NCBI GenBank assembly: GCA_039802205.1
Contig: JBDRWD010000007.1
Span: 2,433-66,432 of the forward strand
Length of the DNA stretch: 64,000 nucleotides
Direction: 5' to 3'
From: a candidate division WOR-3 bacterium
GTDB taxonomy: Bacteria > Hydrothermota > Tepidihabitantia > SM23-42 > JAOAFX01
Below are positions 8,391-61,831 of the stretch, one piece after another; the stretch's first letter is position 1; the number at the start of each line of letters is the position of its first letter. A program made the translations under genes and the position numbers. The notes under the pieces are model-generated. The model had not been told where the DNA came from, made no database searches, and saw only the letters and a program-made list of their open reading frames with translations.

Positions 8391-8801
8391 TCATTCTAAT
8401 TTTTCGCCACAATTCCAGCAATATATCGCATCTCCTGGAACATCTTTTTTACAATTACTACAAGTAAAATCTGATTTCTTCTCCACATTGCTCAAGTCCT
8501 TGTTGCACATATTGCAGATTTTTTTATTGGTTTTTGTACCACAGTATGGGCAAAATTTTATATTTGAAGTCTGTTGAGGTAAATCTTCTTTTTCTTTGAC
8601 TTTCTTTTCAGGAGTGTTTATATCACCCGCAATCGTTTGGCGACCACAAACAAATAATATGCCTAATAATATTCCAACTATGGGACTAAAGAGGACGCTG
8701 TTCCAAAAGCCTTTTGAATACGAAAGACCCACATTTTTCCATGCATTAGCAACAACAAGACATAGTAGCAACCAAAGTAAAATAATTATAAGAATTAACA
8801 T
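8391..8801 (-). CDS. membrane protein with C-terminal double zinc-ribbon (CPYCG..CNMC, CSNC..CWNCG)
   Basis: 136-aa ORF with two N-terminal TM helices and a Cys4 x2 C-terminus. Confidence 0.55.
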   Translation of the reverse strand: MLILIIILLWLLLCLVVANAWKNVGLSYSKGFWNSVLFSPIVGILLGILFVCGRQTIAGDINTPEKKVKEKEDLPQQTSNIKFCPYCGTKTNKKICNMCNKDLSNVEKKSDFTCSNCKKDVPGDAIYCWNCGEKLE

Positions 8802-8829
8802 ACAAAATTGTATATATAATTTAATAAAA

Positions 8830-8835
8830 AGTCAA
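8830..8835 (-). promoter_or_regulatory. candidate -35 box (TTGACT) for 8391..8801 at the gene-proximal edge of repeat copy A
   Basis: GGCTCAGACC-N9-TTGACT arrangement is shared with copy B. Confidence 0.3.
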
Positions 8836-8840
8836 GGTGG

Positions 8841-9130
8841 AAAGGGTCTGAGCCTTCTCTACTTTTTGTCAAATTATTTTTATGCGCTGGATTATTAGGG
8901 GTAGCCGCGCCCTTCAGGGTGCGAGATATTCTGGGATGTAAAAAGATTTATCCGCAGGCTAAAGCCTGCGCCTACCATTTTACCGGTTACCACCCAAGGA
9001 CTTCAGGTTGGCTTTTTTATTTAAGCAAGGCTAAAGCCTTGCCCTACAAAAATCCCAACGCTAAATTATTGATGACCCTTTCAAATCTTGCCCATGGGTT
9101 TTATCGTTCCTTCATAAGATATAAAAATAT
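8841..9130. repeat. structured intergenic repeat element, copy A (second copy at 51731..51935)
   Basis: Roughly 80-90% identity to copy B over ~200 nt (GGTCTGAGCC..AAATTATTTTTATGCGC..GGTAGCCGCrCCCTTCAGGGTGCGArAT..ATTTATCCGCAGGCTAAAGCCTGC..CCCTACAAAAATCCCAAC..TTGCCCATG..TTTTATCGT). Copy A carries an extra ~70-nt inserted hairpin module (CAAGGC-UAAA-GCCUUG). Confidence 0.65.
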
Positions 9131-9286
9131 GGAGAGAACTCAGTTTAGAAATCGGGTTGTTTAATAAAAATAGAATATCTTATCCAGATAATTAAAATGT
9201 GATATACTATATCCAAAAAGTGTCTATGATCACAATAGCCATTCCTGGGGAGGTATACATTAGAGGAGCCAAAAGAGAAACGCAAA

Positions 9287-9311
9287 CCTAAAGGTTTGCC
9301 CTACATTGTAA
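9287..9311 (-). terminator. Rho-independent terminator downstream of msrB
   Basis: On the minus strand: GCAAACC-UUUA-GGUUUGC followed by GUUUCUCUUUUGG. It shares the UAAA/UUUA-loop hairpin module of the repeat family. Confidence 0.5.
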
Positions 9312-9323
9312 AATTACCTAATT

Positions 9324-9698
9324 TTAATCCGGCACGAAAATCAGAGAAATTGAGTTTACACAATGGCGGACATTCTTTTCGGTGAAGCCTTCGCCTTCAA
9401 AGACATGGCCTAAATGGGCACCGCAGTTTGCACACTGTATCTCAATCCTGATACCATCAGGGTCTGGAACTCTTTTCACCGCACCCTTTATCTCTTCATC
9501 AAAACTGGGCCAGCCGCACCCGGATTTGAATTTTGCCTCAGAGCGATAAAGCGGTGCATTACATCTTTTGCAATGATAAGTGCCCTTTTGAAAAAAATCA
9601 TTGTATTCACCGCTGAATGGCGGCTCTGTCCCTTTATGAATGATTACCCATTCTTCGGCTCTGGTGAGTTTTCGGAATTTTTTATTTGTGTTGTCCAT
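9324..9698 (-). CDS. msrB: peptide-methionine (R)-S-oxide reductase MsrB
   Basis: Two CxxC zinc pairs (CKRC.., CANCG) and the catalytic RHCVNS motif. This is the Cys form, not Sec. Confidence 0.9.
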   Translation of the reverse strand: MDNTNKKFRKLTRAEEWVIIHKGTEPPFSGEYNDFFQKGTYHCKRCNAPLYRSEAKFKSGCGWPSFDEEIKGAVKRVPDPDGIRIEIQCANCGAHLGHVFEGEGFTEKNVRHCVNSISLIFVPD

Positions 9699-9838
9699 GT
9701 TATTTCATTATGACAAATTAAATATAAGAAAATTTTTCTTCTTTCACCCCTACCTTAGTCCTCCTCCCTCAAGGGGGAGGAAAAAGAAAAGGGGTCTGCC
9801 ATCAGGGGGAGGAGAAAGGGAAGCTGGATATAATTTAT

Positions 9839-12800
9839 TCAATCCTTCACTCTTTCAGGCATACAGGTCTTAGAGACACGACACAGGATATCATCAATTA
9901 TTGTGTAAACAACCGGAATGAGAATGAGTGATACAAAGATACTGAAGGTCATACCGCCAATGAATGCACTTGCCAGTGCCTTTAATGATTCGCCACCACC
10001 ACCGATATTTAAGGCAAGGAACAGAGAGCCGAAGATTGTGGTCAATGAGGTCATCATCACTGGACGGAATCGCTTTTCACCTGCCTCAATTATCGCCTTG
10101 TTTCTTTCTACATTCTTTTCTCTTCGTGATACAACATAATCAAGCAAGAGTATCGCATTATCCGTTACGATTCCAGAAAGAATGATTGCCGATAAGAAAG
10201 AAGACAGATTTAATTCATTGCCCGTGAGCACGAGTCCAGCAAAAAATCCGGTTATGGAAAATGGCACAGAGAGGATTATTACAAAGGGCAAGGTCAGGCT
10301 ATTGAATTGGACACCCATCACCATATACACCAGAATTATTGCAATGATAAGGGCAATACCAAGTGTCTTGAAACTCTCGGCAATCGCCCGATTTGCCCCT
10401 CGCTGTTCAATATTGTATCCATCAGGCAGTTTGAATTCATTTATTATCCATTCAACAATTTTACGATTCTCACGGGCATTCGTGCCCGGTGCAAAACTAC
10501 CGGTAATGTTTACCGAACGTCTTTGATTTATCCGCACAATCTCGGATGGTGATTCACCTTCCTGAAGCACGCCCAGACTTTTGAGCGGCACAACCCCTGC
10601 CAGGGGTGTCGCAACCGGCAGGTTGGCAATGTCACGGAGGGTGAATTTTTCCGCATTAGCAATAACAAGTTCCACATCAATATCCTTATCATCCTTGCGA
10701 TAGGTGGTAACGACCTCACCGGATTTGGCAATCCGCAATGTCTGGGCAAGGGCAAATGCTGAAATCCCTGTAGCAGAAAGTCTCATTCGGTCCGGAATAA
10801 ATACGAATGCGGGCAAACCCCGAGCCAGATTACTCTTTATATATAAAAAGTTTTTCTCGCTTCGCAATGCAGAAGCAAGACGGCTACCAAGTTCACGCAG
10901 GGTATCAAGGTTATCACCGAAGATATTTATATCAATATCCTCGCGCCTCACGCCGACCGTAGCATCAATCACCCGCACAACAAATGTTGGTTCGGTAAAT
11001 GATTCAAGAATTTTTTTGGCATCCGCCATAACTTCACGCACCGGCCTTTTCTTTTCGGTATAGACATTTATTGTAGCACTATACGGTTGGGGCGTACCGA
11101 AGAATGGGTCTTCTCCAACGATGGAAGAGACCTTTGCTACACCATTCAAATTCAACAATGCCTTCTCTAATTTCATTACTTCATTGTTACAATGTTCTAA
11201 TGAAGTTCCACGGGGATATTCAAGGACGATCTGAAACTCACCTTCATCAGTGGCGGCAATCAGACCGGTCTTCACAAAACTGGCAAGAATAAAGCCAATG
11301 ACCAGTAAAAAGACAAATATGAAAACCGTAATCAAACGGTGTCTTAAAACCTTTTCCAGAAGATTTTTATATCCATTTCTCATCATCGTTTCCAGATTCA
11401 AAAACCAGCGGTTAAACTGAAATTTTGGCGGTTCGGGTTTCAATAAGAAATAACTCAATATCGGGACAATTGTTACTGCAATGATGATTGAAATGCTCAA
11501 TGAGAATACAACGGTCAGGGCAAGTTCGCCGAGCAAAACCTTGGCAAATCCCTGGGTAAAAGCAAGGGGTAAAAATACGACTATCGTCGTAATGACACCG
11601 GCGCTTATTGCCAGACCTACTTCCCGTGTTGATTCCACAACCATTTCTAATTTTGAACCGGAAAAATCTTTATCCCGCAAATGCCGGAAGATATTCTCCA
11701 TCACCACGATTGAGGCATCTACAATCAAACCAGTAGCAAGGGATAATCCACCAATAGAGATCGTATTGAGCGAAAGATTGAAGACCTTCATAAAGATAAA
11801 GGTGATTATGATAGTAATCGGGATTGATATCACAATGACGAGGGTGTTTCTAATCCTGCCTAAAAATAAAAGTATCACGAGCGATGCCAGCAATGCACCT
11901 AAAATGCCCGAAATGACCACATCTTTAAGGGCATTAAGAATTACATTGGATTCGTCTTTGATGACCTGAATCTTTATATCCGAAGGCAATTTATCTTTAT
12001 TTTCTTTGAGCCATTTTTTCACTCCCTGCGCAACCTGGACTGAATTGCCATTGCTCGGTTTGCGCACCAGGATTCCTACCGCATTATTTAGATTCAAACG
12101 AGCAAAACGCGTCTGCAATTTTTCAATACTATAAACCTTTGCAATATCACCAATCCTGATCGTCCTGCCGCCGGCAACCGTGATGTATTCATTCTTGATA
12201 TCTTCTATGGATTGATAACTTCCTTTCAGACGTAATGAAAATACATGCTGACCACTCTTTATTTCACCGATTGGAAAATCAATGTTACCACTGCTTAAGG
12301 CGAGGGCAATCTGATTTAAGCCGATACCGGTTTCGTATAAACGGAGTGGGTCAATTTCAACACGAATCACTTCATCTATTCCGCCGGTGACCTTGGCATT
12401 TGCGACACCGGGCAGACGAGCAATTGCCGGCGCAATCCTTTTTTCTACAAATCTTTTCAAATCGGCAAGGTCCCTGGTTTCAGATGTAATAGAAAGTTCA
12501 ACCGGTGGTGGAAGAATGTTACTTATCGTCGTGATTGAAGGAGTTGTGGCATTCCTGGGCAATTGTCCTTTTATGAGGTCAATCTTTTCCTGGAGTTCAC
12601 GCTGTTTTTTTTCTATATTCACACCGAACGCATAATTTACAATGATCTGTGAAAAACCTTCTCGGCTCGTGGAGTTGATCTGCTCAATGCCGGAGATAGT
12701 TGAAATCGCTTCTTCAATTGGTTTGGTCAGTTCATTCTCAACAACTTCTGGACTCGCACCAGGATAGGCAGTAATGATTATTGCGGCTGGAACCGAAAAT

Positions 12801-12916
12801 TCTGGATAATAGGAAACCGGCAGGGAAAAGAAACTGATAAAACCAATAATTATTAAGACCCCGGTTATTAAAAGGGTTCCCACATACCTCTGGATAAAAA
12901 AGCGAATCACATTCAT
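9839..12916 (-). CDS. RND multidrug efflux transporter, AcrB/HAE1 family (inner membrane pump)
   Basis: 1025 aa with 12-TM RND architecture. Ends TGA. Confidence 0.9.
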   Translation of the reverse strand: MNVIRFFIQRYVGTLLITGVLIIIGFISFFSLPVSYYPEFSVPAAIIITAYPGASPEVVENELTKPIEEAISTISGIEQINSTSREGFSQIIVNYAFGVNIEKKQRELQEKIDLIKGQLPRNATTPSITTISNILPPPVELSITSETRDLADLKRFVEKRIAPAIARLPGVANAKVTGGIDEVIRVEIDPLRLYETGIGLNQIALALSSGNIDFPIGEIKSGQHVFSLRLKGSYQSIEDIKNEYITVAGGRTIRIGDIAKVYSIEKLQTRFARLNLNNAVGILVRKPSNGNSVQVAQGVKKWLKENKDKLPSDIKIQVIKDESNVILNALKDVVISGILGALLASLVILLFLGRIRNTLVIVISIPITIIITFIFMKVFNLSLNTISIGGLSLATGLIVDASIVVMENIFRHLRDKDFSGSKLEMVVESTREVGLAISAGVITTIVVFLPLAFTQGFAKVLLGELALTVVFSLSISIIIAVTIVPILSYFLLKPEPPKFQFNRWFLNLETMMRNGYKNLLEKVLRHRLITVFIFVFLLVIGFILASFVKTGLIAATDEGEFQIVLEYPRGTSLEHCNNEVMKLEKALLNLNGVAKVSSIVGEDPFFGTPQPYSATINVYTEKKRPVREVMADAKKILESFTEPTFVVRVIDATVGVRREDIDINIFGDNLDTLRELGSRLASALRSEKNFLYIKSNLARGLPAFVFIPDRMRLSATGISAFALAQTLRIAKSGEVVTTYRKDDKDIDVELVIANAEKFTLRDIANLPVATPLAGVVPLKSLGVLQEGESPSEIVRINQRRSVNITGSFAPGTNARENRKIVEWIINEFKLPDGYNIEQRGANRAIAESFKTLGIALIIAIILVYMVMGVQFNSLTLPFVIILSVPFSITGFFAGLVLTGNELNLSSFLSAIILSGIVTDNAILLLDYVVSRREKNVERNKAIIEAGEKRFRPVMMTSLTTIFGSLFLALNIGGGGESLKALASAFIGGMTFSIFVSLILIPVVYTIIDDILCRVSKTCMPERVKD

Positions 12917-12917
12917 A

Positions 12918-13787
12918 TCATTCCTTAATTACATTGACTTTTTGCCCATCAGTTATTCGGTCTGCACCTTCACTGATGATTATTTCATTTTCTTTTAAAC
13001 CACTGACTAAATAGTATTCCTCAGAACGGGATATTATCTGGATTGGTGTAAAGACTGCCTTATCATCTTCTAACTTATATACACCCGTGCCTTTTTCGCT
13101 TAAGTTTACAACCGCTTTTCGAGGAATCACCATACCAGTGCGTGTTGCGACAATGATATGCCCATTCAGGGTCTGACCGATAAGCAAATTGTTTTTGGGA
13201 GTGGCAAGACGACAGACCTGACTTTCTATTGTGACACCACCGGTGGCCGGGTCAACCTGGGGGGCAACAAGGTTTATTTGAACCACGGCAACCGTATCTT
13301 TTTTTCCATCAGTAATCGCAATCCTCTGTTTTGGTTTTACTGAAAAACGCTCTTCACCGAATACCTGCCCCTTGAAATTAAGACAACCGATATCGCCGAC
13401 TTCAAACAATGGCGTCTGGGGATTTATCGTCTTGCCAATATCAATTAAAGACTTCAATACAATACCTCTTATTGGCGATTTTACAGAATATGGCTTAAAC
13501 TCACTACCAGGCACTTCCTGGATAACAGTTGCCAATGTCTGATTTAAAAATACTGTATCACCTTCACGGACAAGAATCTTTTCTACCTTACCTGAAATTT
13601 GAGCAAAGACGCTCACGGCATTTTTCGGCATTATCTTACCTACCACATCAACGACCACAGGTATTGTTGTATCTTTTACCACTGCGGTTTTAACAGAAAC
13701 TACCACTTCAGTAACCTTTTTCTCTTTTCCCTTACAAAAAGGGAAGAGAAATAATAGCATTACTAAAATGATTAATGTTCTTCTCAT
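12918..13787 (-). CDS. efflux RND periplasmic adaptor subunit (MFP/HlyD family), lipoprotein
   Basis: Probable start is ATG 13785-13787 (MRRTLIILVMLLFLFPFC lipobox), 1 nt after the TAG of the upstream pump. The tracked ORF extends to 13823. Confidence 0.75.
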   Translation of the reverse strand: MRRTLIILVMLLFLFPFCKGKEKKVTEVVVSVKTAVVKDTTIPVVVDVVGKIMPKNAVSVFAQISGKVEKILVREGDTVFLNQTLATVIQEVPGSEFKPYSVKSPIRGIVLKSLIDIGKTINPQTPLFEVGDIGCLNFKGQVFGEERFSVKPKQRIAITDGKKDTVAVVQINLVAPQVDPATGGVTIESQVCRLATPKNNLLIGQTLNGHIIVATRTGMVIPRKAVVNLSEKGTGVYKLEDDKAVFTPIQIISRSEEYYLVSGLKENEIIISEGADRITDGQKVNVIKE

Positions 13788-13788
13788 A

Positions 13789-16700
13789 CTACACCCCTTT
13801 TTCACTCTTTGTTCTTTTTTCAATCACCAGATAGATCGTGGGAATGAAGACCAGAGTCAAGAATGTGGCAAAGAGCAAGCCGCCAATAACCGAACGTGCC
13901 ATTGGTGCACGAATTTCACTCCCCGCACCAATACCGAGTGCCATCGGAATTAAACCGAAGATTGTAGTAAGTGCCGTCATCAGAATCGGTCTGAGACGCA
14001 CCCTGCCTGCCTCAATCAATGCATCAACAAGAGGCATCCCATGTTTTCGCCGCAATTGATTTGTATAATCCACATAGACAATGGCATTGTTTACCACAAC
14101 ACCGGCAAGCAATAACAAGCCCATTAAACTCTGCATATTGACGGTCGTATTGGTGAAGAAAAGCATCCATAATACACCGATGATTGCCAGGGGGACTGTG
14201 AACATAATAATAAATGGCTCCCGGAAAGATTCAAACTGCCCGACCATTATAATATAGACAAGGAATATCGCAATAAGGATTACAAAACCGATATCCCTGA
14301 ATGTTGTCTGCATCTCTCTAAATCCACCACCCATTTCAAATTTAAATCCCGGAGGCAGAGGGTATTCTTTTAATATCTTTTGCACATCACGTGCTACACT
14401 ATTCTGATCCCTGCCTTCTACATTGCCGGTGATTTTGACCACCCGGAATGTGTTTTCATGCTCAATCTTCTCCGGTCCGACGGTAACCGTATCAATGAGA
14501 AAGTTTCTCAAAGGCACAACCCCGACCGGTGTTGCAATATTCAGTGCCTTAATCTTCTCCGGTGTATCTTTATATCCCTTTTTGAGCGTAATCCTTATAT
14601 CATATTCCCTTCCCTCAATACGATACTGGGTCGCAACCATCCCTTCAATCTGACTCCTCAAGGCAAGACCAATCTGATAAGGGGTAAGACCAAATTGCAT
14701 TGCCTTGTATCTATCAACGATGAACTGAATCTCAGGCTTACCCTCACTCAAATCCGATTCAATATCAACAAGACCTTTTACTTTTCTTAATTTTTCAATC
14801 AACTCGTCATTGATTCTTTTTGCCTTATCAAGGTCATAGCCGATTATCTTTATTTCAATCGGTTTGCCAGTGCCAAATAAGAAAGACTCCTGGGAGGTGA
14901 AGCGGACGACAAGACCGGGGATGGAATTCAATTTAGGCCGGAGCGCTTTCTGAATATCTTTTACCGAACGGTTGCGCTTTTCTCTATCTACAAGCCCGAT
15001 CCAGATTGTTGCCGCATTTGGACCTGCTCCGCCACCAAAGAGCGCGGAAAGACCGGTGCCTGAGCCAATCGTGATAAAAACATTTTTCATCTCCGGTATT
15101 TCTTTCAGCAGTATCTCTTCTAATTTGATTATTGCTGAATCAGTAGTTGCAAGATTTGTGCCTACAGGCATCTCGGCTTCAATCTGGATCTGCCCCCGGT
15201 CCGGGGATGGTGTGAGTTCAGCGCCGATAAAGAATAAAAGACCTAAACTCAATACAAAGAGCCCACCGGTACCAAAGATTATCCTCTTGCGATGATTCAA
15301 TGCCCAACGGATTATTCTTAGATAGAAATCTTCTATCCTCTTGTAAAATTTCTGGACTGTTCTTTCAATACCACTGAGTTCTGTTTTAATATGTATCAAC
15401 TTTGCCATCAACATCGGCACAATCGTTACTGCCACAAGCAATGACGAGGCAAGGGCAAAGGTCACAGTCCAGGCGATCTGACTGAAAAATATTGACGCAA
15501 ATCCCCGCACCAGAAGCAATGGTAAGAAAACCGCGATCGTGGTCAAGGTTGAGGCGGTGATTGCCATACCAACTTCCTGTGTGCCCAGAACCGATGCCAG
15601 ATCAGGTTCTTCACCCTTTTCCTGTCGGTGCCGATAGATTGCCTCAAACACAACGATTGCACAGTCGACGACCATGCCGATCGCAATCGTCAGACCACCG
15701 AGCGAGACCATATTGATCGTCATATTGAAGATAAACATCATAAAGACCGCAAAGAATACTGTAATAGGAAGTGTGATACCAATTATGAGGGCTGCCCTCA
15801 GATTTCCGAGGAACAAAAAGAGAATTAAAACCGCAAGTATCGCACCGATTATCAGTGTATCCGCAGTGCTACGAATAGAACGATTTATAAAATCTGCCTG
15901 ATTGAAAAATACATCAATACTGACACCCGAGGGTAATTCCTTCTTAATGTTTTCAATCTCTTTTACCACATCATTACAGACCTTTACGGTATTGGCATTC
16001 GTTCTCTTCTGAATAAAACCATATATTGAATTGACCCGATTCGTCCGGGTGATTGAAGTTCTCTCAGATGGACCAAGTTTCACATCTGCAACCTGTTCCA
16101 GTAAAATCGGAATTCCGTTCTTGTTGCCGATCACGGTCTTTCGGATTTCATCAATATTTTTATACTCACCAATCACCCGCAGGGTATATACCTTTGTACC
16201 GGATTCCACCTTGCCCAAAGGAAAATTTATATTCTGGGCACGCAGGATATTCATCACCTGTTCCGGGCTGATCCCCAGACTGATGAGTTTCTCATAATCA
16301 AATTGAATCTGGACCTCGGTCAGAACTCCACTTTCAACAAAGGAAGCAGCAACCCCACCGACCCTTTGGAGTCTATCCGCAATATCATCACCAATCCGGT
16401 CAAGTTCCAGCGGATCAATATCCCCTTTGATGCTGTAAAGTACCACGGGCTGTTGTGATACATCAAATTTAAATATCATCGGTTGCTGGGCATCCTGGGG
16501 CAGATACGGTAATATCAAACCAAGTCTATCACGCACATCATTTGCCGCAGCATCAAGGTCGGTTCCCCAAGTAAATTGTAGCATAATCATTGAAGAGTTC
16601 TCCGAAGAGGTTGAGGTAATCTTTTCAATATTGTTGAGCGTACCAAGAATCTTCTCAAAAGGCTGGGTGATCTGGGTCTCAACCTCCTGCGGTCCCGCAC

Positions 16701-16857
16701 CCTGATAGGTCGTCATCACAACCATCATTGGGAGGGTGATATTGGGGAACAGGTCAACGGGTAATTTGGTTATCGATATTATGCCGAAGACCAGCAACCC
16801 CAAAAAGACCATTGAAATTGTTAGGGGTCTTTTTACAGAAACTTCGGTGATCTTCAT
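13789..16857 (-). CDS. RND multidrug efflux transporter, AcrB/HAE1 family (second pump)
   Basis: 1022 aa, paralogous to 9839..12916. Its start overlaps the upstream gene's stop (ATGA). Confidence 0.9.
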   Translation of the reverse strand: MKITEVSVKRPLTISMVFLGLLVFGIISITKLPVDLFPNITLPMMVVMTTYQGAGPQEVETQITQPFEKILGTLNNIEKITSTSSENSSMIMLQFTWGTDLDAAANDVRDRLGLILPYLPQDAQQPMIFKFDVSQQPVVLYSIKGDIDPLELDRIGDDIADRLQRVGGVAASFVESGVLTEVQIQFDYEKLISLGISPEQVMNILRAQNINFPLGKVESGTKVYTLRVIGEYKNIDEIRKTVIGNKNGIPILLEQVADVKLGPSERTSITRTNRVNSIYGFIQKRTNANTVKVCNDVVKEIENIKKELPSGVSIDVFFNQADFINRSIRSTADTLIIGAILAVLILFLFLGNLRAALIIGITLPITVFFAVFMMFIFNMTINMVSLGGLTIAIGMVVDCAIVVFEAIYRHRQEKGEEPDLASVLGTQEVGMAITASTLTTIAVFLPLLLVRGFASIFFSQIAWTVTFALASSLLVAVTIVPMLMAKLIHIKTELSGIERTVQKFYKRIEDFYLRIIRWALNHRKRIIFGTGGLFVLSLGLLFFIGAELTPSPDRGQIQIEAEMPVGTNLATTDSAIIKLEEILLKEIPEMKNVFITIGSGTGLSALFGGGAGPNAATIWIGLVDREKRNRSVKDIQKALRPKLNSIPGLVVRFTSQESFLFGTGKPIEIKIIGYDLDKAKRINDELIEKLRKVKGLVDIESDLSEGKPEIQFIVDRYKAMQFGLTPYQIGLALRSQIEGMVATQYRIEGREYDIRITLKKGYKDTPEKIKALNIATPVGVVPLRNFLIDTVTVGPEKIEHENTFRVVKITGNVEGRDQNSVARDVQKILKEYPLPPGFKFEMGGGFREMQTTFRDIGFVILIAIFLVYIIMVGQFESFREPFIIMFTVPLAIIGVLWMLFFTNTTVNMQSLMGLLLLAGVVVNNAIVYVDYTNQLRRKHGMPLVDALIEAGRVRLRPILMTALTTIFGLIPMALGIGAGSEIRAPMARSVIGGLLFATFLTLVFIPTIYLVIEKRTKSEKGV

Positions 16858-17735
16858 CTTTCCCTCACAATCGGAATGACCTTTTCACCACCCGCAAGGC
16901 GCTGCTGACCAAGAACAATCACAAGTTCATTTTCATTAAGCCCTTCAATGACTTCTACAAGTTCATCACCAACAAGCCCGATTTTTATCGGTCTTCTTTC
17001 GGCGATGCTGTCTTTATTTACTACAAAGACTGAATTATCGATGAGTGCATCCTTGGAAATTGCAACCGCGCCTTTTTTCTCACTCATCTTGATTGATACC
17101 CTTGCGGTCATCCCGGGTTTTAGATCTGCGACCGGGTTCTGGATAATTCCTTTCACCGCCACGGTCTTGGTCAGCGGGTCGATGATGGGACTGATCTCGC
17201 TTATATAGCCGTTAAACACCTTCTCTGAGACTGCATCAACATTTATAATTATCGGCATATTCACACGGAAACACTGGGCATCTATTTCCGGGACATTGAA
17301 ACTCACCTTTATTCGGGATAAATCAACGACCATCGCCACTGGCATTTGGGGTGCGACAGTCGAACCAACATCTACTAAGATCTTGGCGATTGTGCCACTG
17401 ATTGGAGTGGTGACAGACGCCTCTTCAAAATCAAAACCCACGGTTTCATTGCGCATACCAATTATTTTCTCTCCCTTCTGGACATAGGAGCCTTCTTTGA
17501 CAAATATTTTTGTCACCCGTCCCATTGTCTCTGGAAAGATCTGGACTGTTTTATCCGCAACAAGGGTGCCGATGATGGTGCAGGTCTTCCGGACATCGGA
17601 CTTTTTAACGGAAATTACTTCTACCGTTGGCGGCACCTTTTCCATCTTTGCACCTGTCTGCCTTTTGACAAGGGTCAATCTTAGAACCGCGCCGATTACA
17701 ATAATGATGATAATTGCTATTAAATATCTCTTCAT
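16854..17735 (-). CDS. efflux RND periplasmic adaptor subunit (MFP)
   Basis: 293 aa with an N-terminal TM/signal segment and the beta-barrel/lipoyl architecture typical of AcrA-like adaptors. Confidence 0.8.
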   Translation of the reverse strand: MKRYLIAIIIIIVIGAVLRLTLVKRQTGAKMEKVPPTVEVISVKKSDVRKTCTIIGTLVADKTVQIFPETMGRVTKIFVKEGSYVQKGEKIIGMRNETVGFDFEEASVTTPISGTIAKILVDVGSTVAPQMPVAMVVDLSRIKVSFNVPEIDAQCFRVNMPIIINVDAVSEKVFNGYISEISPIIDPLTKTVAVKGIIQNPVADLKPGMTARVSIKMSEKKGAVAISKDALIDNSVFVVNKDSIAERRPIKIGLVGDELVEVIEGLNENELVIVLGQQRLAGGEKVIPIVRER

Positions 17736-17757
17736 AATAATACCTCCTTAAATTTTA

Positions 17758-18282
17758 TTATAGATGTACGAAGATTCCTAAACATATTGTTATTAATAAT
17801 TCGCAAGAATTGCATTTTTCTATATTACCTCCATTTTCCGATTCTCCAAACTTGAGAAGGCTTTCGCCTTCTTCAATTTCCTCTTTTTTGAAGGGCCTTC
17901 GACTTACTGAAACTTCCCCTCCCTTGAGGGGAGGGGATAAAGGGGAGGGTGACAATTCACTGATTATCACTTCCATCACCCCATCGATATTTCTTAATAC
18001 ATCGTTATTCCAAAATCTTAATACCCTGTATCCTTGTGACCGAAGCCACCTATCCCTTATTTTATCAATCTTGCTCTCAAAATGCCCACTGCCATCAACC
18101 TCAATAATCAATTTTTTCTCAAAACAGACAAAATCCACAATATAGCGTCCTATCATCTGCTGTCTTCGAAATTTTACACCTAATTGTTTATCTCGTATCT
18201 TATACCATAATCTCTTTTCTGCTAAGGTCATATTGCCTCTTAGGCGTTTTAATATTATTTTGTTTCGTGGGGTTAGTTTCAT
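17758..18282 (-). CDS. DUF559 (Vsr-like endonuclease fold) domain protein with unrelated low-complexity C-terminal tail
   Basis: The N-terminal ~110 aa match the DUF559 pattern (..YIVDFVC..IIEVDGSGHF..D..RD..L...G..VLRFWN..V). The C-terminal 60 aa are translated through a G/C palindromic repeat. Confidence 0.65.
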   Translation of the reverse strand: MKLTPRNKIILKRLRGNMTLAEKRLWYKIRDKQLGVKFRRQQMIGRYIVDFVCFEKKLIIEVDGSGHFESKIDKIRDRWLRSQGYRVLRFWNNDVLRNIDGVMEVIISELSPSPLSPPLKGGEVSVSRRPFKKEEIEEGESLLKFGESENGGNIEKCNSCELLITICLGIFVHL

Positions 18283-18302
18283 TCTTTCACCCCCACCTTA
18301 AT

Positions 18303-18490
18303 CCTCCCCCCTCAAGGGGGAGGAAAAGAGAAGGAGAATCCCCCTCAAGGGGGAGGAAAAGAGAAGGAGAATCCCCCTCAAGGGGGAGGAAAAGAGAAGG
18401 AGAATCCCCCTCAAGGGGGAGGAAAAGCGAAGGAGAACCCCCTCAAGGGGGAGGAAAAGAGAAGAAAATTTGCCATCAAGGGGGAGGGCA
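18303..18490. repeat. tandem array of ~5.5 copies of a 33-bp unit (CCCCCTCAAGGGGGAGGAAAAGAGAAGGAGAAT), each unit holding a CCCCC-uCAa-GGGGG palindrome
   Basis: Copies 2 and 3 are identical and the outer copies are degenerate. No unique spacers, so this is not CRISPR. Tracked ORFs 18267..18494 (+) and 18298..18510 (-) are artefacts of the repeat. Confidence 0.85.
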
Positions 18491-18502
18491 TTAAAAGCGA
18501 TT

Positions 18503-19768
18503 CTACTCATACCCCACTGCCTTTAGCAAATCGGCACGGGCACTCAAATAATCCTTCAGGGCATTTAGATAATTTATCTTTGCCTGCATCGTTGCGAGTT
18601 GTGAATCAAGATATTCAAGGTTTGTAGCAAGTCCGTTTTTGTACCTTGTTTCCATCATATTGAGTGCCTGCTCTGCCTGATTTATATTCTCTTTCGCCGC
18701 AGCAATCGCCTCCTTTGCCGCAATCAGATTGAAATATGCCTGCTTCACCTCAAGGATAATTCCCTTTGTTAGATTTTCATAGGCAAGTTCCACTTCCTTC
18801 ATCTGTAAGGTTGATTTGTTATATTCATAGAGATTTTTATAGCCACTGAAGATGGGCCACTGGAATCCAACATTAAATGTAAGGTTTGAACCCCAGTCAT
18901 TGCCGCCAAAACTGAATGGTTTTTTGCGGTCATAACTAACACCCGCAACGAGCGTGGGCAGGTTTGAACGGGCCTTGAGCGTCTTTGCAATTTGGGTCAA
19001 TTTCTCAACTTTATCCAGATTCTTCAATTCTGCACGATTATTCAATGCCTCCTGTTTGAGGACCTCAAGGTCGTAATCAGATTCGGTTATCTCAAGGGTA
19101 TCTATTAAGTTGAATTCCTTATCCTGCGGCAACCCCAGAAGCATTTTAAAACCTTCACGCGCAAGGCGTAAACCATTTTCAGCCTCAATCAGCTTCGGCT
19201 TGAGATTAGCAACCTGGACCTGGGAGCGGAGCAGGTCAAATTGTGAAACAAGTCCTGCCTCATAGCGCTTGCGCACTGCCTCCTCATGCCTTTTTAACTG
19301 TTCCATACTCTCTCTGGTCAATTCCACCATCTTCTCCAGAACCAGTAATCCGTAGTATGATTTAACGACCGAACAACGCACCTCCTGTTTTTTTCTTATC
19401 AATTTCAATTCTGCAATATCACGATTGATTCCCGCAATCCGATAGGCATCATATATCTTACCCCAGGCAAATAATACCTGCTGGAGCGAGACCTGGAAAT
19501 TATAATTTTCATGTTGCCCCATTGGAATTGCAAGGGAATCCATCTGAAAGACGGGCAGGTTGCTCAAATAGGCATAATAACCGGTTGCCGAGATTGTCGG
19601 ATAGAATGCCGAGCGGGCAATGCCGATGTCGGCTGCAGATTTATTTAAATCAATGGTGAGTTGTTTTATTTCTGCATTGTTGTTATAGGCAAATTCAACT
19701 GCCTCGTTTAATGAAAAGTTGACCGTATCCTGGGCAGTCAAAAGAGTTAGAAGAACAAATTGTAGCAT
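18503..19768 (-). CDS. TolC-family outer membrane efflux protein
   Basis: 421 aa with a signal peptide and the two-repeat OEP architecture. Confidence 0.85.
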   Translation of the reverse strand: MLQFVLLTLLTAQDTVNFSLNEAVEFAYNNNAEIKQLTIDLNKSAADIGIARSAFYPTISATGYYAYLSNLPVFQMDSLAIPMGQHENYNFQVSLQQVLFAWGKIYDAYRIAGINRDIAELKLIRKKQEVRCSVVKSYYGLLVLEKMVELTRESMEQLKRHEEAVRKRYEAGLVSQFDLLRSQVQVANLKPKLIEAENGLRLAREGFKMLLGLPQDKEFNLIDTLEITESDYDLEVLKQEALNNRAELKNLDKVEKLTQIAKTLKARSNLPTLVAGVSYDRKKPFSFGGNDWGSNLTFNVGFQWPIFSGYKNLYEYNKSTLQMKEVELAYENLTKGIILEVKQAYFNLIAAKEAIAAAKENINQAEQALNMMETRYKNGLATNLEYLDSQLATMQAKINYLNALKDYLSARADLLKAVGYE

Positions 19769-21016: not shown

Positions 21017-21054
21017 AATAACTAATTTAGACTCCTTTTAAGATAAAAAAGTTT

Positions 21055-21080
21055 ATAATGACTGACCAGTCAGTCATTAT
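21055..21080. promoter_or_regulatory. palindromic operator ATAATGACTGAC-ca-GTCAGTCATTAT (12-bp arms) 40 bp upstream of the TetR gene
   Basis: Near-perfect inverted repeat. Its left arm overlaps a TATAAT hexamer. This is the typical TetR autoregulatory operator position. Confidence 0.6.
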
Positions 21081-21337
21081 ATCTAAAAATTAGAATATGT
21101 CAACAGGCCGATTTACAGAGTCCTCTCAACATTTTTTCTTGAAATTTTAGTCTTCATGCTAAATATTATTTTATGCACTTATTTTTGCTGTTTTAAATAC
21201 TTTTAACAGATGTGTATTAAATCACACTTTCAATCCCCCTCTTTCCCCCTTTTGTAAAGGGGGATAATGAGGATTATTAAATGAGTTTTTTATATAAAAT
21301 AATCGTAAGGCAGACCTTGGATGGAGTTTTTAATCAA

Positions 21338-23245: not shown

Positions 23246-23312
23246 AATCTTCTCCTTTCTACCCCTTTTTAATCCTCCCCCTTCAAAGGGGAAAGATTTT
23301 TGAGGGATGAAA

Positions 23313-23394
23313 TGCCGGAGGGGGGATTTGAACCCCCACGCCCGAAGGCCTACGCCCCTCAAACGTATGTGTCTGCCAGTTCCACCACCCCGGC
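23313..23394 (-). tRNA. tRNA-Leu (anticodon GAG), type II with long variable arm, no encoded CCA
   Basis: Acceptor GCCGGGG/CUCCGGC, anticodon stem UACGU/GCGUA with loop UUGAGGG, variable arm GCCuucgGGC, T-loop UUCAAAU. Confidence 0.85.
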
Positions 23395-23514
23395 ACAAAT
23401 AATGGATTCTGTTTAATCTCCTGATATTATAACTAAAATCGGAAATTTGTCAATTATTAACTTGTTGACTTTTTAGCAATTTTAAATAGAATAGTCCATG
23501 CACTGGAGAAAAAT

Positions 23515-45068: not shown

Positions 45069-45185
45069 AATTGCTCCTTTTTTGATTATTTTATTTATTT
45101 TTCATAATAAGTCAACCCTCGAGCAGGCTGAGTCTTCCCCTTTTTCAAACGCTAAAAAATGTGGCATGAGTTTAACGGGAGTTTA

Positions 45186-45221: not shown

Positions 45222-45297
45222 GGCGCCATCGTCTAACCTGGTTCAGGACATCGCCCTCTCAAGGCGAAGATTACGGGTTCGAATCCCGTTGGCGCCA
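45222..45297 (+). tRNA. tRNA-Glu (anticodon CUC), no encoded CCA
   Basis: Acceptor GGCGCCA/UGGCGCC, anticodon stem UCGCC/GGCGA with loop CUCUCAA, T-arm ACGGG-UUCGAAU-CCCGU. Confidence 0.85.
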
Positions 45298-49171: not shown

Positions 49172-49468
49172 TATCCGGTCGCGCAACCCCAATTCGCCGA
49201 CAAAACCAGGAACAGCAAGGCAAAGGACTCAGCCCAGGCACCCTTATGACCAGCCCTCTGTCTACTTACCGTTGCTTCCTTCCGGACCTGGCGGGGTTTG
49301 TAGACGGTGCTTTCATAAGACCCGAGCCTCAACGCCCTTTACTCCTTACTGTTGCCCCTGAGATTGCCGGCTCCAAGGGGTCTTCACCCCGCATGAGCGG
49401 ATTTCGGGTCCTCCCATCTTGCGACGGGATTCAGGGCACCGCTAGCTCCCCGTTTAGCACGACCGGAA
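49172..49468 (-). ncRNA. ffs: signal recognition particle RNA, long (Bacillus-type) form with Alu domain
   Basis: Minus-strand GUGCUAAACGGGGAGCUAGCGGUGCCCUGAAUCC matches the B. subtilis scRNA 5' Alu region (GUGCUAAGCGGGGAGGUAGCGGUGCCCUG). The domain IV hallmark CAGGUCCGGAAGGAAGCA is present. An 11-bp terminal helix pairs 5' UCCGGUCGUGC with 3' GCGCGACCGGA. It sits immediately upstream of dnaX, as scr does in Bacillus. Ends are ±10 nt. Confidence 0.85.
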
Positions 49469-50455
49469 TCATCTTTTGAAGTCAGTCTTCTCAAACAGAA
49501 ACTCCTGGGGCTTTATACCGCAGGTTCCGATACCATTCCGTACCAGATAGGTCTGGAATGTTTCAATCGCCTTCAAATCGATCTCGGCGAGCCTTTGAAA
49601 ATCAGGCATCCTCATATTAGAAAGGAAGATAGGATCCATGGGCCAATCATTGTTGCGCACCAACACCTGTTTACCAATCTCGGGTTTTAATCTTAAATAC
49701 CCGAGGACGCCATCAAGGACATTTTTCATCCGGAATGAAGCCAGACGCTCTTCCTGGACGAATTTCTTACGCATCACGATCGCCAGATAGGGCATGGAAG
49801 GCATGACATACCGGTTGATCAAACCTTCATCCAGGAGTGTATCACCTGAAAAGAGTAGATAACTCCGGAAAGGCTCAAGAACAAATAAGGCATCAACCTT
49901 TTTACTCGATAAGGCGGTGGGTAACTCATCGCGGCTTAAGGGAACACGAGTATAATTAGTAAGTTTTTCTACAGCAAAATTGGGTGCCACAAGATTAAAG
50001 AGATATTCTTCATCGATGAGATACCCTATCCTCTTTTTATTGAGGTCTTTGAGTAATTTTATCTTTGTACCCTTAGGAATGATGATTGCATCGGCAATTC
50101 CTTTGAAGGTTATGGTGCCCACAGCCTTTACCGTATCTCCGTTGAGGCTTGGTGAGATTAATAACTTATACCAGGGGACCGCACATATCTCATATTCACC
50201 ACGCTTCAATCCCTCCAGGGGGTCACCGGTGATGTTTACAAACTCCGGGGCTACCCGTTCAATGACAAAATAGCGCCGCGTGGTATCAAATTGTGCCACA
50301 TAAAACGGAAGTCCGCTGAAGAATTTATCAACACCGATGCGCACTTTAACCGGTTGAGCCTCTTTGTACTGGGGATAACCAACCACAAAAAGGAGGACCA
50401 AAAGACCAATAAATATCAAAATATTAAGAATGACTTCTGTAGTCTTGCGGTTCAT
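49469..50455 (-). CDS. periplasmic substrate-binding-like protein (NMT1/SsuA-like fold, membrane-anchored)
   Basis: 328 aa with an N-terminal TM anchor. The alpha/beta pattern resembles ABC substrate-binding proteins. Assignment is weak. Confidence 0.4.
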   Translation of the reverse strand: MNRKTTEVILNILIFIGLLVLLFVVGYPQYKEAQPVKVRIGVDKFFSGLPFYVAQFDTTRRYFVIERVAPEFVNITGDPLEGLKRGEYEICAVPWYKLLISPSLNGDTVKAVGTITFKGIADAIIIPKGTKIKLLKDLNKKRIGYLIDEEYLFNLVAPNFAVEKLTNYTRVPLSRDELPTALSSKKVDALFVLEPFRSYLLFSGDTLLDEGLINRYVMPSMPYLAIVMRKKFVQEERLASFRMKNVLDGVLGYLRLKPEIGKQVLVRNNDWPMDPIFLSNMRMPDFQRLAEIDLKAIETFQTYLVRNGIGTCGIKPQEFLFEKTDFKR

Positions 50456-51675
50456 TTTTTCTCCCTTGTTATCTTATCAGCCCTTTGGAGATATTCCCAA
50501 GCCTTTTTGGTATTACCGAGCTCACGATAGGCATAGGCGAGATTGGTTAATACATCAACATTTTCAGGGTCTAACGGTAACGCTTTTCCTTCATAAATCT
50601 CTATTGCTTTTTTATAATTTTTTTCCTGGGAATAAGTAACCCCAATGTAAAACCAAGCGGGGAAATCATCGGATTTTATTTGAACAAGTCTTTCAAAATA
50701 TCTACGTGCATCTGCCCATTTCCCCATACGGATCAGAAGCTCACCCAGGAAGAAGAGAACATCGATATCGTTAGGAATGAATTCAACCGCCTTCGCGAGG
50801 TTTTTATAGGCGAGGGTATCATTTTTACGATTGAGATAGGTGATGCCGGTGAGATAATAATCCCGACCCAAACCTTCATTGACTTTTGCAAATTTTTCCA
50901 CATTTTTTTCCTGGGCTGACAGGCCATTCTCGATCCCCAATTTTACCTTGAGGAATTGATCCAAGGCATCCTTTTTATTCTCTTTCCATAGCGTTACGAG
51001 TTCTTCAACGAGGGACTGCTGTGGTTCTACATTTTTAAAAAGCAAATTCTTTAATTTCCCGTATTCGGCTTCATGGGATTTTATTGCATTTTCCAGATAG
51101 AAAAGGGTGGAGTCATATGCCTGTTGATCGAAATAGGACCGGGCGATGAAATAATTTGCCTCGGCATTTTCTTTATCAAATTCAAGGATTTTGAAAAAGA
51201 TTTTTAATGCTTTCTCTTTTTCTCCGGTTTCACTGTAAATGTTCCCTTCCAGGATGTACTGGCTGGGATTCTCGGGGTCAAGTTTTTTGGCAAAATAAAG
51301 ATTTGCAAGGGCTTCCTCATACTTTTTATCCAGATAAAGTTTGTAGGCAGTGCTGTAAAAGATATGCCAGTAAGCCGAAACATTGCGACCATTTTCATCG
51401 TTCTTTAACCAGGTGATTGTAGCAGTGGAATCTTTTTTGAAACCTTCTTGGAAGGCCTTGCTTGCTTCAGGATAATTCCCCAGACCTAATTCTGCCTTCC
51501 CGAGCAAGCAATAAGCTTCATAATCATCTGGCACAATCTTTATGCCTTCGAGCGCTTGGGCTTTAGCTCGGGCATAATCCTGCTGTTGAATATATATTTT
51601 GCAGGCATTCTTCCAGGTTGGTGGACAACCTAAAAAAAACAAAACCAACAAGGCTAAGGCGAAGCATTTTTTCAT
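50452..51675 (-). CDS. TPR-repeat lipoprotein
   Basis: Probable start is ATG 51673-51675 after AAGGAGG (MKKCFALALLVLFFLGC lipobox). The body has tandem TPR motifs. The tracked ORF runs to 51753. Confidence 0.7.
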   Translation of the reverse strand: MKKCFALALLVLFFLGCPPTWKNACKIYIQQQDYARAKAQALEGIKIVPDDYEAYCLLGKAELGLGNYPEASKAFQEGFKKDSTATITWLKNDENGRNVSAYWHIFYSTAYKLYLDKKYEEALANLYFAKKLDPENPSQYILEGNIYSETGEKEKALKIFFKILEFDKENAEANYFIARSYFDQQAYDSTLFYLENAIKSHEAEYGKLKNLLFKNVEPQQSLVEELVTLWKENKKDALDQFLKVKLGIENGLSAQEKNVEKFAKVNEGLGRDYYLTGITYLNRKNDTLAYKNLAKAVEFIPNDIDVLFFLGELLIRMGKWADARRYFERLVQIKSDDFPAWFYIGVTYSQEKNYKKAIEIYEGKALPLDPENVDVLTNLAYAYRELGNTKKAWEYLQRADKITREKK

Positions 51676-51694: not shown

Positions 51695-51722
51695 ATTCTA
51701 TCCAAAAAACAGACAAAGTCAA
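51695..51722 (-). promoter_or_regulatory. candidate sigma70 promoter TTGACT-N16-TAGAAT for the TPR lipoprotein gene, at the gene-proximal edge of repeat copy B
   Basis: -35 at 51717-51722 and -10 at 51695-51700, read on the minus strand. An AAGGAGG RBS and ATG follow. Confidence 0.45.
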
Positions 51723-51730
51723 TAGGAAGA

Positions 51731-51935
51731 TGGTCTGAGCCCTCTTTTCTCAAATTATTTTTATGCGCGCTAAATTATTAGAGGTAGCCGCACCCTTCAG
51801 GGTGCGAAATACCCTAAGATTTAAAAACATTTATCCGCAGGCTAAAGCCTGCCCTACAAAAATCCCAACCCTAAATCATTGATTACCCTTACAAAGTTTG
51901 CCCATGATTTTTATCGTCCCTAAAAATGGAGAGGA
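51731..51935. repeat. structured intergenic repeat element, copy B (see 8841..9130)
   Basis: Collinear with copy A. Contains hairpins CGCACCC-uuca-GGGUGCG and GCAGGC-uaaa-GCCUGC. Confidence 0.65.
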
Positions 51936-52004
51936 CCCAGGAAGATGGTCATTTAAGTAGATTTGGCTCTTGATTTTTTAACATTTATGTATATATTTAC
52001 ATTA

Positions 52005-61057: not shown

Positions 61058-61084
61058 AGAAAATAATTTTCCAAGGGGGAGGAA

Positions 61085-61831
61085 ATGTCCCGGATATTTG
61101 GATTTTTGATCTTGTTTTCCGTTCTTTTTGGCGATGTGATGTATGAGGTCACGACCCGGTTTGAAGGTATGCCGGACCTGGAGAGCGGATTTCTGACCAT
61201 CCGGAATTTCATCAAAGGTTGGTGTGTGCGAATAGAAATGAAGTCAGAATCTTCAGCACTCTCCAACAAACCGATGGTGATGGTGCTTCACTTAGACAAA
61301 GGGGTTTCCTGGATTCTGGACCTGGAAAAAAAGGAATATGTTGAATTACCGCTTGATGTTCTCATGAAAGATCGGCTTCCAGGAGATTCCAAGTGCCTAC
61401 CACAATTTAAAATTGAAAAACTCCCTGAAATTAGGGAGATTCTGAAGATCAAGTGTGAAAAGTATCTTCTCACAATGACCCTCCAGACTGATAACGAAAA
61501 GATAACGATTACCCAGATAATGTGGCTGGGCCGTGATTTTCTCGGTTATCAGGAAATCAAGGAATTTAATCGGAAACTGGGAGGGAAAATAATCACCATG
61601 GGACTTTTTGATCAGGATAAAGCCTATTACCATGATTTACAGAAAAAGATCGCAGAACTGGATGGTTTTCCTCTGGAATTGGAATTCACAGTAAAGATTG
61701 AAGGCCGGAATGTGATAGAATTGAGAGGTTCAAGCACTGTAAACAAGATCACCACAGTCCCGATCAGCAACCGGGTTTTTGAAATTCCTGAAGGGTATCA
61801 GCCAGCGGAGATTCCTGGGATTGATTTATGA
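61085..61831 (+). CDS. hypothetical exported protein
   Basis: RBS GGGGAGGAA before the ATG. Signal peptide MSRIFGFLILFSVLFG. Confidence 0.5.
   Translation: MSRIFGFLILFSVLFGDVMYEVTTRFEGMPDLESGFLTIRNFIKGWCVRIEMKSESSALSNKPMVMVLHLDKGVSWILDLEKKEYVELPLDVLMKDRLPGDSKCLPQFKIEKLPEIREILKIKCEKYLLTMTLQTDNEKITITQIMWLGRDFLGYQEIKEFNRKLGGKIITMGLFDQDKAYYHDLQKKIAELDGFPLELEFTVKIEGRNVIELRGSSTVNKITTVPISNRVFEIPEGYQPAEIPGIDL

Follow-up and report, generated by a model that had tools for sequence, protein, structure and literature searches.

A probable family of non-autonomous transposons lying at a fixed distance from resident −35 boxes in a candidate division WOR-3 bacterium

The 64,000-nucleotide stretch analysed here (the window; contig JBDRWD010000007.1 of assembly GCA_039802205.1, from a candidate division WOR-3 bacterium) carries two copies, A and B, of a hairpin-rich intergenic segment, raising the question of what kind of element this is. 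The original prediction, made from the two copies alone, considered a shared regulatory or untranslated-region RNA, a small structured non-coding RNA (ncRNA) gene and a MITE-like mobile repeat that donates a promoter. The evidence described below is that the segment belongs, with a probability of about 0.82, to a family of non-autonomous DNA transposons (MITEs, i.e. miniature transposable elements with inverted repeats); the family is new, whereas the kind of element is well known. Since copies at other sites, terminal inverted repeats and target-site duplications (TSDs) were all found, the mobile repeat is the option to be preferred over the RNA options. The element does not, however, supply a promoter and nothing shows that it acts as an RNA.

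The repeat itself is real. As predicted (at approximately 85% identity), copies A and B are collinear, being 86% identical overall in a multiple alignment, with stretches of 85% over 93 nt (family D5) and 88% over 72 nt (family D12) in a repeat finder, i.e. a similarity far above chance (blastn E ~1e-35). The bounds first given, 8841-9130 and 51731-51935, were approximately right as to place; the true bounds, running from inverted repeat to inverted repeat, are those in Table 1. Copy A lies between msrB (9324-9698, minus) and a gene for a zinc-ribbon membrane protein (8391-8801, minus), and copy B between the divergent genes for a TPR lipoprotein (50452-51675, minus) and alr (plus). Related DNA was reached via neighbouring proteins, including TPR lipoprotein orthologues, an identical MsrB, PyrR and the products of genes near both window ends; the loci so fetched are designated L with a number. 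They contain copy C (299 bp, next to tRNA-Glu in L013 and L014, not in the window), copy X (between a CBM96-like gene and pyrR) and copy E (just past the right end of the window), together with copies D and F, of which one end each is seen, at contig joins or contig ends. The end assigned to copy F is at positions 1-27 of L037, a Logan contig ending ~2.1 kb upstream of the window start, which begins ...AAAAGTGAGGAGTACTCAG|TCGTTAGAG and resembles the right end of a further copy at a contig break. Copies are thus present at at least six loci in ~110 kb of DNA of the species, roughly one per 15-20 kb of the DNA sampled. An nhmmer profile of eight copies recovers all of the full copies and misses short solo-end remnants; assignment of the latter rests on local alignment with shuffles, plus position.

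Most full copies are ~270-300 bp, those measured spanning 206-299 bp. Copy B is shorter by ~90 bp, lacking the segment between two AGGCTAAAGCCT(T)GC modules, i.e. it arose by a deletion between hairpin modules 2 and 3; since copy B is an internally deleted form of a longer element, the extra module of copy A is not an insertion, as had been thought. The element has no coding capacity. The sole open reading frame (ORF) placed on copy A by gene callers (81 aa) is not conserved between copies, and a protein search with it returned only itself. A mini-ORF starting MERTQ (ATGGAGAGRACYCAG), previously noted at the ends of both copies, is the right terminal inverted repeat, and GTG and GCG stand in place of its ATG in copies C and E, respectively.

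The ends of the element are imperfect 15-20-bp terminal inverted repeats, CTGAGYCYTCTCCAC / GTGGAGAGGACTCAG; in copy C the left end, CTGAGTCTTCTCCAC, matches the reverse complement of the right end, CTGAGTCCTCTCCAC, at 14/15 positions. Similarity between copies starts exactly at CTGAG and stops exactly at CYCAG, the flanks being unrelated at at least five loci (A, B, C, X, E, D-left). Perfect 9-bp TSDs flank three copies, i.e. B (GAAGATGGT), C (TCGAGCAGG) and X (CATTGCTCA); in the case of B the TSD is the core of a perfect 12-nt direct repeat at 51724-51735 and 51939-51950. Copy A is without an intact TSD (GGAAAGGGT left, TTTAGAAAT right).

Evidence for mobility comes from comparison of strains and relatives. 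Assemblies GCA_039802225.1 and GCA_039802305.1 have a 310-bp insert beside tRNA-Glu that is lacking in the window and in GCA_039802165.1, the flanks being otherwise identical, and this block consists of a 299-bp element (CTGAGTCTTCTCCAC ... GTGGAGAGGACTCAG) and a second copy of the 9 nt TCGAGCAGG. In relatives with a 78-80% identical TPR protein, the spacer between alr and the TPR gene is 99 bp, compared with 329 bp in the window; it keeps AAAGTCAATAG and the alr promoter and is without the element. Between strains, element X is 91.5% identical and 6 kb of its flanks 99.5% identical, so that the element diverges ~17 times faster. Within the element, contigs either end or connect two different copies (L013, L026, L014, L016, L017, L027, L028 and L031), with chimeric joins of B-left to X-right in L013 and of D-left to A-right in L026. 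Such joins arise by recombination or mis-assembly, and are the behaviour of a dispersed repeat.

Beyond these loci, exact scans of the genome_contigs and metagenome_contigs sets with the element 20-mer TGCCCTACAAAAATCCCAAC gave chance matches only, in conserved alphaproteobacterial coding sequence (VPYKNPNNYV), and viral contigs scanned for the element gave no match. Look-ups aimed at sequence past the window's left end yielded nothing further. Between the end of L010 and the right flank of copy A, blastn gave a 50-nt similarity; inspection of the window by eye did not reproduce it, and it was set aside.

The position of the insertions is unexpectedly regular. The distance between one tip and a TTGAC(T/A) hexamer that points away from the element is exactly 12 nt in every complete copy (5/5) and in two solo-end remnants, and is made up of 3 nt and the 9-nt TSD or target. 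At 16-17 nt beyond the hexamers there is a −10 box, followed either by a start codon with its ribosome-binding site or by a leaderless one, or, for copy E, by the RNase P RNA, the Rfam match to which starts 6 nt past TATAAT. That the hexamers belong to promoters is thus credible from the sequence. The promoter-like sites that had been noticed beside copies A and B are both present, TTGACT-N17-TACAAT and TTGACT-N16-TAGAAT (Table 1). They are not donated by the element, however: the predicted element end, 'GGCUCAGACC-N-TTGACT', is the left inverted repeat joined to host flank, and the −35 box is resident, since the empty sites of relatives have it, as does the allele lacking copy C. For the same reason a left flank (AAAGTCAA and 12 nt), considered as part of the element, was ruled out by sites without the element.

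The window has 73 TTGAC[TA] hexamers in 128 kb of both strands, ~6e-4 per position. Because a match at one fixed offset is rare, the occurrence of the same offset in five independent elements is not due to chance. A scan of the window for CTCAG-N(4-24)-TTGAC gave four sites, three with N=12 and the fourth with N=7; about 20 window sites fit TTGAC[TA]-N16-18-TAnnnT, of which four carry a copy or remnant. In L013/L014 the full copy C, with its own TSD TCGAGCAGG, directly abuts on its right the older remnant at 45128, so the same 9-bp target has been used twice. The known ends of copies D and F, one each, are not next to a −35 box; the rule concerns one tip per element, so these ends do not contradict it. 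It can be inferred that insertion is not random, the choice of target being directed by the −35 hexamer itself or by proteins that bind at it.

Table 1. Coordinates in the window of the element copies, their parts, remnants and adjoining promoter-like sites, with the flanks of five insertion sites
Feature	Position	Strand	Details
MITE copy A	8848..9143	+	296 bp, full length; nhmmer E 1.5e-97
Left terminal inverted repeat, copy A	8848..8862	+	CTGAGCCTTCTCTAC
Right terminal inverted repeat, copy A	9129..9143	+	ATGGAGAGAACTCAG
Conserved core, copy A	8901..8975	+	GTAG, hairpin 1 (8906-8923), spacer, hairpin 2 (8953-8970), CCTAC
Hairpin module 3 with CCCTAC tail	9025..9047	+	internal duplicate of module 2
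Solo hairpin module with CCTAC tail	9282..9305	+	GCAAACC-TAAA-GGTTTGC; 140 nt right of copy A
MITE copy B	51735..51940	+	206 bp, internally deleted
Left TSD, copy B	51726..51734	.	9 bp, GAAGATGGT
Right TSD, copy B	51941..51949	.	9 bp, GAAGATGGT
Solo-end, internally deleted remnant	45128..45170	+	CTGAGTCTTCCCCTTTTTCAAACGCTAAAAAATGTGGCATGAG; 12 nt from TTGACT at 45115-45110 (minus)
Probable solo left-end remnant	21116..21137	+	CAGAGTCCTCTCAACATTTTTTC; 19/21 matches to a left end; shuffle p ~0.003
Resident promoter-like site, zinc-ribbon gene	8807..8835	-	TTGACT-N17-TACAAT; -35 12 nt from left tip of copy A
Resident promoter-like site, TPR gene	51695..51722	-	TTGACT-N16-TAGAAT; -35 12 nt from left tip of copy B; kept in element-free relatives
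Promoter, TetR-family gene	21103-21076	-	TTGACA-N17-TATAAT; 12 nt from the 21116 remnant
Site A flank, hexamer to tip			AGTCAA-GGT-GGAAAGGGT-tip
Site B flank, hexamer to tip			AGTCAA-TAG-GAAGATGGT-tip
Site C flank, hexamer to tip			AGTCAA-CCC-TCGAGCAGG-tip
Site X flank, hexamer to tip			AGTCAA-GGT-CATTGCTCA-tip
Site E flank, right tip			tip-TGGGATTTC-CTA-TTGACA; tip faces RNase P RNA promoter

Some features of the adjoining promoters may be recorded. The start of the zinc-ribbon gene (window 8801), like that of the CBM96-like gene (L029 ~9621), seems to be only 5-7 nt past the −10 box, which suggests that the mRNAs of both are leaderless. A perfect palindrome (TGACTGACCAGTCAGTCA, window 21040-21075), probably the operator of the TetR-family gene, is situated between that gene's −10 box and its start. 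The RNase P RNA gene is at 17394-17820 of L038, ~4.5 kb past the right window end, and its promoter and that of tRNA-Glu both adjoin MITE copies or remnants. The RNAs of the window itself include a large bacterial SRP RNA (49179-49462, minus), tRNA-Leu(GAG) (23312-23395, minus) and tRNA-Glu(CTC) (45222-45297, plus).

With regard to mechanism, a DDE transposase encoded elsewhere would bind the inverted repeats and cut the target with a 9-bp stagger, the repair of which would leave the 9-bp TSDs. The copies then decay, lose internal segments, as seen with copy B, and leave solo ends; recombination or gene conversion between copies may be responsible for the element differing more between strains than its flanks do. 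In the observed pattern the 9-bp target is 3 bp away from a sigma-70-type −35 hexamer TTGAC(T/A), so that the tip is placed 12 bp upstream of the resident promoter, at approximately −48, with the core promoter left intact. The element may also affect expression.

The spacing pattern suggests promoter-directed target choice. A more specific proposal, put forward tentatively and with rather less than even odds, is that the transposition machinery reads promoter architecture, either by recognition of the −35 hexamer directly or by tethering to sigma factor/RNA polymerase there, with integration into the 9 bp starting 3 bp upstream. If this is so, each insertion, whichever its orientation, lands at approximately −48 relative to an active sigma-70-type promoter and leaves that promoter intact, giving a bacterial counterpart of the promoter-tethered integration of yeast Ty elements and a ready-made means of rewiring upstream regulatory DNA. 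A limited search of the literature found no description of a fixed 12-nt spacing to resident −35 boxes.

The identity of the parent element can be considered from the ends and the TSD length. It is probably, on sequence grounds, an IS4-type insertion sequence (IS50/IS10 type). In the IS4 family table the IS10 subgroup has conserved termini CT and a 9-bp TSD, and the IS50 subgroup the signature CW------Y---CA-A--W- with an 8-9-bp TSD (PMC2266710). The right inverted repeats of A, C and X (as reverse complement for copy A) match 7/7 positions of the IS50-subgroup signature (P ~6e-4 per random 20-mer of the same composition), and those of B and E match 6/7. As a sign of an IS4-family parent this match is suggestive only, and a 9-bp TSD is not unique to IS4, since ISAba12 and related insertion sequences also give 9 bp (PMC6382973). 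In another strain, L015 (positions 1-446; GCA_965649355.1) has an IS481-family element at the spot upstream of the TPR promoter (window ~51730), where it replaces or displaces copy B; the N terminus of its transposase matches Pfam LZ_Tnp_IS481 and HTH_28, and its junction, AATAGGAAGA|GAGATGCAGAG, is 8 nt from AGTCAA. As a candidate autonomous partner this IS481-type element was rejected, its end sequence being unrelated.

Several observations weigh against the family being transposons of this type with a target rule as described. Copies A and E, both of them old or recombined, have no TSDs. Agreement with the IS50 signature is limited to 4-5/7 positions in the left inverted repeats. An IS4-family parent would encode a DDE transposase with a YREK motif; a transposase with matching ends was not found, by Pfam annotation, in the window or the fetched loci, so mobilisation in trans and IS4-family parentage are both inferred. 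The core of the element is better conserved than its inverted repeats, which would be unusual in a decaying MITE and may indicate extra constraint or gene conversion; it could reflect gene conversion, a binding site used in transposition, or a host function. Finally, the target rule derives from seven insertion events in one species, and selection after insertion is not formally separable from target choice.

Other interpretations draw on the GC-rich core and its hairpins. The hairpins originally described (CGCRCCC-TTCA-GGGTGCG, GCAGGC-TAAA-GCCTGC and CAAGGC-TAAA-GCCTTG) are all present. The first two form the core, each headed by GTAG and in opposite directions, and the GTAG/GT[AG]G head with palindrome is common to all three internal hairpins and the solo module. 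That solo module, predicted to double as the msrB terminator, is present, at the coordinates in Table 1 rather than those first given, and is the only terminator-like site found downstream of msrB (minus strand); it is possibly the debris of an older copy. In L024/L026/L028, 5 of ~28 nt of the solo hairpin differ from the window with the flanks looking almost unchanged, the stem being weakened in these other strains (GCAAACCTGAAGATTTGACCGAC).

Could such structure reflect function as an RNA, i.e. a structured ncRNA gene or a shared 5′ leader/regulatory RNA in two paralogous copies? The copies do fold more stably than shuffled sequence on both strands (z = -4.1, -2.6, -3.5), two of the variants in the stems give G-U wobbles on the plus strand, two compensatory pair changes separate module 3 from the solo module, and the two-hairpin core is the best conserved segment (92% mean pairwise identity, compared with 54-85% elsewhere in the element), copies B and E being 100% identical over 66 nt of it and only 76% identical overall. 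The stability of the fold is, however, to be expected anyway from paired inverted repeats and GC hairpins, and stems are broken in module 3 of copy X and in module 2 and hairpin 1 of L032/L033. The Rfam search proposed with the original prediction gave no match at gathering thresholds and nothing beyond noise at E <= 10, the best hits scoring 15-18 bits against cut-offs of 60-90. Further, the element lies upstream of the promoters and so outside the transcripts that it would lead, is absent from the orthologous site of relatives and dispensable within the species, and evolves between strains far faster than its flanks. RNA function in this sense is thus very improbable.

The same hairpins have the format of REP sequences, such that the 200-300-bp unit might be a cluster in a mosaic of the REP (repetitive extragenic palindromic), BIME (bacterial interspersed mosaic element) or REPIN type, spread by a REP-associated tyrosine transposase (RAYT). 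In both cases GTAG precedes a short palindrome (GTAG-CC-GCACCC-TTCA-GGGTGC on the plus strand, GTAGGCGCAGGCTTTAGCCTGC and GTAGGGCAAGGCTTTAGCCTTGC on the minus strand), with close resemblance to listed REPs, e.g. GTAGGGTGGGCTTTAGCCCACC of Haemophilus influenzae (PMC2817692 Table 1); the location outside genes, the opposite orientation of the two core hairpins, as in BIMEs, and the solo terminator-like module are also in keeping (PMC2817692, PMC3116915), as is the conservation of the core. By contrast with REP/BIME/REPIN sequences, the mobile WOR-3 unit has terminal inverted repeats and 9-bp TSDs. HUH/Y1 transposases (IS200/IS605, RAYT families) do not, to our knowledge, make inverted-repeat-bounded units with 9-bp TSDs. 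Nor are the hairpins abundant as free-standing modules: a pattern scan of the window, L013, L024 and L029 (~5% of a genome) located them inside the MITE only, apart from the one solo module, and no Y1_Tnp/RAYT gene is present among the annotated neighbours of the loci (neighbours only). Given this restriction of the modules to the element, and the TSDs generated by the mobile unit, REP membership is rejected as the main explanation and appears quite improbable, the likeness being one of resemblance. An alternative of a different kind accepts that the element is a MITE and ascribes the 12-nt distance to selection after random insertion, the survivors being those that spare the promoter and place the left end usefully. 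The genome is compact with short intergenic spacers (~100 bp between alr and the TPR gene in relatives), and the arrival of an unrelated IS481-family element in the same upstream zone shows that the zone is also simply permissive, suggesting a 'safe' region. Tolerance alone, however, should give distances scattered from 12 nt upwards, whereas exactly 12 nt is observed in seven events, with either tip; the 9-bp target of site C was used twice, and the IS481-type junction is at 8 nt, not 12. Selection as the source of the spacing therefore seems unlikely, though less so than the RNA or REP explanations.

It is informative to compare the family, taken as MITEs, with known systems. Correia elements of Neisseria and other promoter-affecting MITEs are likewise short inverted-repeat elements located between genes, near promoters. 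The duplication made by Correia elements is, however, a TA dinucleotide, and parts of promoters can come from these elements themselves; the WOR-3 family differs in its 9-bp TSD and in that the promoter is resident. Insertion at a preferred position is itself established elsewhere, Tn7 inserting at attTn7 and yeast Ty3 at RNA polymerase III start sites. Like the WOR-3 family, these elements and REP-targeting insertion sequences, e.g. IS1397 (PMC1525189), insert at a fixed offset from a short recognised feature with the adjacent host function spared. The WOR-3 landmark would differ in being the −35 hexamer of ordinary sigma-70-type promoters, with many sites per genome; this is an analogy only, with no evidence for homology.

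Bacterial MITEs are defined as small (about 50-600 bp) and without a transposase gene (PMC6382973). MITEAba12 of Acinetobacter is, like the WOR-3 family, small, non-coding and AT-rich, with terminal inverted repeats and 9-bp TSDs; in both, TSDs are kept by only a fraction of copies (40% in MITEAba12, three perfect ones in the WOR-3 family, B, C and X), strains differ in where copies lie, and a resident insertion sequence is presumed to mobilise them in trans (PMC6382973). MITEAba12 is, however, 113 bp, with outward promoters and varied AT-rich target sites, whereas the WOR-3 element is ~300 bp with a conserved GC hairpin core and a tip fixed 12 nt from a resident −35 box; no convincing outward promoter was seen in the WOR-3 element. 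As in IS50 (Tn5) and IS10 (Tn10) of the IS4 family (PMC2266710), the termini start CT, and the 9-bp TSD agrees with that of IS10 (9 bp) and IS50 (8-9 bp). Unlike these, the WOR-3 element has no transposase gene, and its left end departs from the signature as described above. We know of no description of fixed-distance insertion next to −35 hexamers for IS50/IS10.

Other variation was also observed. A second, unrelated repeat family is present at window 9734-9829, 18277-18503, 23255-23292 and 61072-61100, consisting of CTTTCACCCCTACCTTAGTCCTCC followed by the hairpin CCCCCTCAAGGGGGAGG and including a 33-nt tandem array of 5-6 units at 18307-18503. The efflux locus at window ~9839-18500 differs between strains (L024/L026 5876-9810), there being two membrane-fusion-protein/RND-transporter gene pairs in the window and one in GCA_039802305.1 and GCA_039802225.1.

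For annotation, these results remove a false lead, in that there is no new ncRNA, mini-ORF or donated promoter at these loci, and the MITE family explains assembly breaks and wrong joins at these spots in the WOR-3 species. They also document an active MITE family in a candidate phylum without cultured members. The wider point, which is testable, is that a DNA transposon has insertions at one fixed distance from −35 boxes. If this spacing reflects target choice, the family would serve as a model of the way in which transposases can locate safe harbours when the genome is compact, would allow upstream regulation to change at many promoters simultaneously, and might provide a tool for promoter-proximal integration.

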